A stretch of DNA of 10,891 nt from a virus (Duplodnaviria; Heunggongvirae; Uroviricota; Caudoviricetes). The translations under genes and the position numbers were made by a program. This document shows, piece by piece, positions 1 through 827 of the stretch. Below the pieces are notes generated by a model that was given only the letters and a program-made list of their open reading frames with translations, was not told the origin of the DNA and made no database searches. The stretch lies in the IMG/VR virus record IMGVR_UViG_2541047778_000014; one strand, written 5' to 3'. Position 1 is the first letter of the stretch. Every line of letters starts with the position of its first letter.

Positions 1-66
1 ACTTTCCAGAACCATACGGACTGCCCGTTGACGGACTTCGGGGGAAAAACGAGTATTTTTAGTCAT
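1..66 (-). CDS. IS629 OrfA transposase, N-terminal fragment (partial at window edge)
   Basis: ATG at 66..64 on the minus strand, 55 nt inside the IS end as in the complete copy; encodes [22 protein letters not shown], identical to the start of the OrfA at 7737. Confidence 0.75.
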   Translation of the reverse strand, partial: MTKNTRFSPEVRQRAVRMVLES

Positions 67-120
67 CCTGTTTACCTCTTTCTCAGGAAGTTTAGTCTCC
101 AGGATTCCCGGGGCGGTTCA
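1..120 (-). mobile_element. IS3-family insertion sequence, IS629-like, partial copy (left end only; rest lies beyond window start)
   Basis: Positions 1..120 are the exact reverse complement of 7683..7802 (left end of the complete IS copy). Terminal sequence TGAACCGCCCCGGG ends at 120. The element is truncated only by the window edge. Confidence 0.85.
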
Positions 121-827
121 TTCGCTTTCCATCCGAGTTTCTTGTGCGCATCGGTTGCGGCTTCAAGCCATTCACGTTTGATGATTGCCATATCACTTGC
201 GCTTACTGGCTCACCAAGCCAGATGTGACGATACAGTGTCGGGTTTCTGCGTTTACACTCTTCCATCTCCAGACGGAGAACTTCAGGAAAGTGCGGGTTG
301 TCGGTGTAGTTCACCGTCAGCAGACAAATATCATCGGGAGGGTTTACTACGAATCGCTGATAGGTATCGTCGAGGATGTTTTTCGGGTTGAAGCTCACCC
401 ATATTTCGGAAAATGGCTTGCGGATGGTTGGTATCAGGATATCCCATGATTCCTTCGTTACCGCTTCCGCTTCCTCCACCCAGCAGATATCAATGCCTTC
501 GAGCGATTTAATCTTCGTCGGGTTGTTTTTGATGCCGTAGAACATGAACTCAGCATTCGTCCCGAGATGACGAATCATGGAACGCTGAATTTCAAACTCA
601 GCCGTATACCCTTCACGCTCTATGGTGTCTTCAAGCAGCCGGATTACCGAATCGCTGATACTGTTTTGCAGTTCACGAGCGCAGAGAATACGCACTGGCT
701 GCCGACGCGCCGCTTCAACAAGCAGTCTCGCAATTGCCCATGATTTACCGCTACCTCGACCGCCTTTGGCGACTTTGTAGCGATGCGCCTCAATGAACGG
801 TTCAAAGATAGGATTAATCGAGGTCAT
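121..827 (-). pseudogene. phage terminase large subunit, N-terminal ATPase part, disrupted by IS insertion
   Basis: ORF 72..827 has a Walker A motif (GGRGSGKS) and resembles PBSX-type large terminases from recall. After about 236 codons the reading frame runs into IS sequence (tail [14 protein letters not shown] is IS-derived). Full-length large terminases are typically over 400 aa. Start overlaps the upstream gene by 4 nt (ATGA). Confidence 0.8.

Follow-up and report, generated by a model that had tools for sequence, protein, structure and literature searches.

Gene content of the window

The window, by which we mean the whole 10,891-nucleotide stretch of DNA analysed here, contains a prophage segment lying in situ between two inverted copies of IS629 (121-7682, minus strand; 7,562 bp). 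The segment begins with a truncated large terminase gene (terL'), which is followed by a gene in the small-terminase position (terS-like, 824-1264, 146 aa). The lysis cassette is made up of a 50-aa ORF (2485-2637), an Rz-like gene (2625-3062) and the genes encoding the endolysin (3059-3535) and the holin (3519-3842). Gene Q is found at 4439-4957 and ninB at 7267-7677, and all of these genes are on the minus strand, as are the remaining ones of the segment, namely DUF2560, rha, ninH, rusA, DUF1364, the KilAC antirepressor gene, ninF, ninX and ninE. The 16 complete genes of the segment are all uninterrupted, and 15 of the 16 encode proteins identical to those of E. coli BEN5202, the DNA of which differs from the segment by one mismatch in 7,562 nt. 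The initial annotation, which had placed nin, Q, the lysis genes, rha and the small terminase gene between inverted IS copies, was right in this respect, as all are present and intact.

A PR'-like promoter is predicted on the minus strand at 4432-4461, at the 3' end of Q and facing the lysis genes. This site (TTGACA-18-CATAAT) agrees with the consensus at 11 of 12 positions and ranks first among the promoter-like sites of the window, the assignment being a consensus match only. A tRNA scan found no tRNA genes.

The 146-aa protein encoded at 824-1264 has no Pfam match and aligns with Sf6 gp1 (PDB 3HEF/4DYC) over its last 38 residues only. It looks like a mosaic TerS, in which a different N-terminal region would be joined to an Sf6-like C-terminus.

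The complete IS629 element

The element at 7683-8992 (plus strand) is 1310 bp long. It has the size of an insertion sequence (about 1.3 kb) and is bounded by 25-bp imperfect terminal inverted repeats, IRL at 7683-7707 and IRR at 8968-8992 (TGAACCGCCCCGGGAATCCTGGAGA and TGAACCGCCCCGGGTTTCCTGGAGA, 23 of 25 positions matching), which begin with 5'-TG and end with CA-3'. Its coding layout is that of the IS3 family: orfA (7737-8063, plus strand, 108 aa) carries the Pfam helix-turn-helix domain HTH_Tnp_1 and overlaps orfB (8060-8950, plus strand, 296 aa), which lies in the -1 frame relative to orfA and carries the HTH_21 and DDE-type rve domains. A programmed frameshift signal, the ALIL pseudoknot, was recognized by Rfam at 8018-8134 (120 bits against a cut-off of 50).

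Over its full length (1310/1310 nt) the element is 99.5% identical to features annotated as "IS3 family IS629" in the Stx phage records LC567824.1 and LC567828.1, and many IS3-family copies across E. coli genomes are 100% identical to it, so that the name IS629 is justified. Most E. coli have several copies of IS629, the median being 4 places per genome. No 3-bp target-site duplication was found around the complete copy, the flanking triplets being AAT and GGC. This lack is explained by the deletion of about 9 kb that adjoins the element (see below) and is thus not evidence against its identity. The sequence runs contiguously from ninB through this copy into the truncated DUF7739 gene to its right.

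The left IS629 copy and the truncated large terminase

Positions 1-120 of the window are the exact reverse complement (100%) of 7683-7802, the IRL-proximal end of the complete element. A perfect inverted match of 120 nt within 10.9 kb cannot arise by chance, and the inverted orientation of the two copies noted in the initial annotation was thus confirmed. This second copy lies on the minus strand, with its IRL at 96-120 and the ATG of its orfA at 66-64.

The gene encoding the large terminase has been converted by this copy into a chimeric ORF of 251 aa (72-827, minus strand), in which 235 native codons are followed by a single codon spanning the junction, 15 codons from the IS and a stop. Residues 1-235 are identical to those of the large terminase of UTI89 and BEN5202, which is intact and 471 aa long, while codon 236 straddles the IS junction and is changed from K to N. 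It had been proposed from the sequence that an IS end at position 120 cuts terL after its ATPase domain and adds 15 IS codons, and the comparison with the intact proteins bears this out. The truncated protein still has its Walker A motif (GGRGSGKS) and, from residue 15 to residue 206, a complete Terminase_3 ATPase domain (Pfam, E=3e-42).

The intact homologue of 471 aa is about 99% identical to Sf6 gp2 (PDB 4IDH), with which it aligns over residues 1-456. The catalytic triad of the Sf6 gp2 nuclease consists of D244, D296 and D444 (PMC4678813), all three of which lie beyond residue 235, and the C-terminal RNase-H-like nuclease domain is therefore missing from the truncated protein. The TerL remnant is thus an ATPase domain without its nuclease. 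Compared with Sf6 gp2 (PDB 4IDH; nuclease structures 5C10/5C12), residues 1-235 and the Walker A ATPase domain are kept alike, whereas 16 unrelated residues stand in the place of the RNase-H-like nuclease. As the junction between terL' and IRL sits in continuous sequence, the truncation is real whatever lies further upstream, and the ORF is best annotated as a pseudogene.

The stop codon of terL' (TAA, 74-72, minus strand) lies within the ribosome-binding region of the IS orfA, 5 nt upstream of its ATG (66-64). Since this stop is placed beside an orfA start on the same strand, late-operon transcription and translation would enter the transposase gene of the left copy.

The source scaffold beyond position 1

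An exact look-up of the chimeric 251-aa protein returned a single record, on scaffold KE700025.1 of assembly GCA_000457855.1 (3.2 Mb). Position 1 of the window is the last sequenced base before a gap of 1110 N in this scaffold (L004 10828-11937). Beyond the gap there are 95 nt identical to 8898-8992, the closing stretch of the complete IS up to and including its IRR, and these are followed by the interior of a P22-type coat gene. No terminase C-terminus is present in this extension, so that the finding which the initial annotation had named as refuting its reading did not occur; an IS-sized gap, the matching right end of the IS and the coat gene are found instead. The sequenced ends and the gap add up to 1325 bp (120 + 1110 N + 95) against 1310 bp for one IS629. 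These data fit one full left copy, the interior of which would correspond to a gap of estimated length, the link from terL' through the IS to the truncated coat gene being a scaffold join. The gap should be flagged as an IS in the annotation. The "partial IS" at the edge of the window is an assembly boundary and not a biological truncation.

An assembly or scaffolding artefact, in which the join to the coat contig or the orientation of the 7.5-kb segment would be wrong and the inverted bracket unreal, has to be weighed at this point. The window does begin at the edge of the 1110-N gap, the two inner IS ends are identical IRLs, which makes it impossible to settle from short reads alone how the segment is oriented, and the element is present at several places in most E. 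coli genomes. However, the junction of terL' with IRL is read in continuous sequence, the gap and its sequenced ends have nearly the length expected of one IS (1325 against 1310 bp), and the flank beyond the gap is correctly oriented and comes from a site 4 kb further along in this prophage. Moreover, the sequence through the right copy is unbroken from ninB to the truncated DUF7739 gene. We consider an artefact improbable, the small probability left to it concerning the far side of the left copy.

Deletions at the two IS copies

E. coli UTI89 carries a complete P22/Sf6-like prophage which contains the segment matching 121-7682. The genes of this prophage are arranged in the order ejection and head-completion genes, coat, scaffold, portal, terL and terS, followed by rha, the lysis genes, Q and the nin genes, and then by the helicase, the replication protein, cII, cro, the repressor and the early-left genes, ending with torI and dsdC. 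When the window and its extension were mapped on this prophage, a deletion was found at each IS copy.

The left IS joins coat (position 4954 of the UTI89 reference) to terL (position 9001), and 4,046 bp (about 4.0 kb) are missing. The loss comprises the first 135 nt (45 codons) of coat, the scaffold and portal genes and the last 709 nt of terL, which encode the nuclease half. At the right IS, the prophage sequence breaks off 5 nt before ninB begins (about position 16520, upstream of the start codon) and resumes at position 25968. The deletion on this side amounts to about 9.4 kb relative to UTI89 and about 8.7 kb relative to AH19K002, sizes which are reckoned against related strains and not against the true ancestor. 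It has removed the helicase, the replication protein, cII, cro, the LexA-type repressor and the early-left genes, kil, cIII, erf and abc (anti-RecBCD). Its endpoint lies 34 nt into a UTI89 gene (position 25968), of which the 5'-truncated remainder is the DUF7739 gene at 8993-9258 (plus strand); the Pfam match of this gene begins at position 21 of the profile.

No target-site duplication was found at the left IS copy, the flanking triplets being AAC and TTC. The IS copies are thus more than the simple insertions that the initial annotation might suggest, each of them abutting a deletion of about 4.0 or 9 kb and having no target-site duplication. This case is a reminder that an IS junction may conceal a large deletion. 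Relative to UTI89, the bracketed segment has kept its ancestral orientation and position and is collinear with both outer flanks. None of the four IS junctions was found in 5,426 complete E. coli genomes; being private to one genome, these junctions do not allow the relative order of the events to be inferred from relatives.

The 190-aa ORF to the right of the complete IS (9260-9832, plus strand) is uninterrupted. By analogy with BEN5202 it was considered as a candidate for ERF, and this was rejected because its Pfam matches are Ead/Ea22 and DUF551 and the deletion extends past erf. In the RefSeq annotation of BEN5202, where the DNA is identical, the equivalent of 9260-9832 is given as two features, a small hypothetical protein and an ead/Ea22 pseudogene marked as incomplete.

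Expression and function of the remnant

The repressor, cro, the PR/PL early region and the replication genes upstream of nin and Q, which would be expected in an inducible prophage, have been replaced by an IS. It had been claimed that the interruption of terL abolishes DNA packaging. The loss of the nuclease half agrees with this, but the claim was incomplete, as the deletions also took the portal and scaffold genes, the 5' end of coat and the whole region of the replication, immunity and early-left genes. We infer that the remnant is incapable of packaging, replication, immunity and its own early-to-late switch, and the prophage should be flagged as defective in annotation.

The survival of the lysis functions, which had also been suggested, stands as far as coding capacity is concerned, the genes being intact, but the normal promoter route to Q has been deleted. 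Q is left without its normal promoter, since the losses include PR, cro, the repressor and the early-left (N-position) region. Judging from these missing upstream regulators, Q, the lysis genes and terS probably stay unexpressed as long as no compatible Q is provided in trans. Read-through from the IS copies cannot drive the bracketed genes, because both transposase genes are transcribed outward.

The intact block (TerS, the TerL ATPase fragment, rha, lysis, Q and nin) could in theory be maintained by selection and not by chance, for instance if TerL' and TerS together were dominant-negative against superinfecting Sf6-like phages. We regard this as very unlikely, and the same is said of the separate proposal that the site 5-7 nt upstream of ninB is a true IS629 hot spot.

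To the right of the complete IS, the surviving early-left genes (8993-10891, plus strand) are the truncated DUF7739 gene, ead, DUF4752, ASCH and torI. Their own promoter region has been lost, and they lie directly downstream of the transposase of the complete IS629 and in the same direction. Read-through from the IS may be the sole source of transcription for these genes.

The same prophage and IS629 in other strains

The segment 121-7682 has matches in about a hundred complete E. coli genomes, with identities of up to 100%, among them UTI89, APEC O1, S88, IHE3034 and the E. coli type strain. The prophage is intact in UTI89, APEC O1 and S88, which are extraintestinal or avian pathogenic strains.

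In AH19K002 (NZ_CP196258.1) and BEN5202 (NZ_LR740758.1) the prophage backbone is 99.9-100% identical and IS629-type elements are also present. AH19K002 resembles the window in that its terL is cut by an IS and a second IS lies beside ninB, although the insertion points in AH19K002 and BEN5202 all differ from those of the window. The terL junction of AH19K002 is 88 bp further into the gene and is abutted by IRR, whereas IRL is found at this place in the window, and its deletion reaches gp10. The deletion-associated copy of AH19K002 (L002 4001-5310) joins a truncated gp10 to a truncated terL, and that of BEN5202 (L003 12688-13997) joins a truncated dnaB to erf, in both cases with no target-site duplication.

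The copy beside ninB in AH19K002 is a simple insertion, flanked by a 3-bp duplication of TAC (L002 12950-12957 and 14262-14270). It is a 97.9% identical isoform in the opposite orientation, placed 2 bp from the junction at 7682/7683 of the window. Two independent insertions within 2 bp suggest a local preference of IS629 for the DNA just upstream of ninB, in other words a candidate hot spot. The window was also considered as an inversion isomer of the arrangement in AH19K002, and this was rejected since both the orientations of the IS copies and their insertion points differ. Taken at the level of genome comparison, these strains point to repeated independent decay of this prophage, in which IS insertion would be coupled to deletion.

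Origin of the arrangement

The arrangement is very probably the outcome of IS629-driven decay of an Sf6/P22-like lambdoid prophage located next to torI and dsdC in a draft assembly of E. coli (GCA_000457855.1). Each copy would have been inserted first, an IS-adjacent deletion following afterwards. The deletions could have been produced by a transposase-initiated event or by RecA recombination between the IS and another copy in direct orientation, which is no longer present; as either route results in one IS without a duplication, the two share the same end product. The "bracket" is a by-product of two independent events of insertion plus deletion.

The initial annotation had suggested that the arrangement can behave as a composite unit, and a composite transposon, made up of two IS629 copies and a lysis/Q/nin module that had moved or was mobile as a unit, was therefore considered. 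Two identical IS copies do bracket the 7.56-kb segment and both outer ends are intact IRRs. Transposition in the IS3 family proceeds through a circle in which IRL and IRR of one element are joined. A composite with IRR at both ends is not known as a normal substrate for this family, which counts against such a unit. Moreover, the segment is collinear with both ancestral outer flanks and has never left its place, the outer flanks (AAC and GGC) show no target-site duplication around the unit, and neither the four junctions, among the 5,426 complete E. coli genomes, nor the chimeric protein, which occurs on one contig only, is found in any other context. The suggestion was accordingly abandoned as extremely improbable.

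In intramolecular duplicative inversion, a form of replicative transposition, an IS is copied into a nearby site in the opposite orientation and the DNA in between is inverted. Inverted identical copies bracketing a segment, as seen here, are the product to be expected from such an event. Nevertheless its probability is very low, given that the segment runs in the original direction with respect to both flanks, that such a mechanism does not produce the deletions present at both copies, and that IS3-family elements are described as transposing by copy-out-paste-in (bioRxiv 10.1101/2023.06.07.543989).

Independent insertion and deletion at each copy thus remains the preferred explanation. Inversion of the 7.56-kb segment by homologous recombination between the two inverted copies is possible in principle, and since both transposase genes read outward such a flip would have no obvious functional effect.

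The behaviour of IS629 seen here is already known. In O157 genomes 62% of the IS629 copies are found in prophages (PMC3271280), and this element has been held responsible for many gene inactivations and genomic deletions (PMC9943667). The window shares with the O157:H7 prophages the same element, its preference for prophages and the outcome of inactivation and deletion. The host lineage and the prophage differ, however, the latter being Sf6/P22-like and not an O157 Stx or lambdoid phage, and the exact junctions are private to this genome. This is ordinary, strain-private prophage decay by IS629, with no new biology beyond the O157 record. It shows in good resolution how a once complete prophage can be reduced to an immobile remnant by an IS that is present in several copies.
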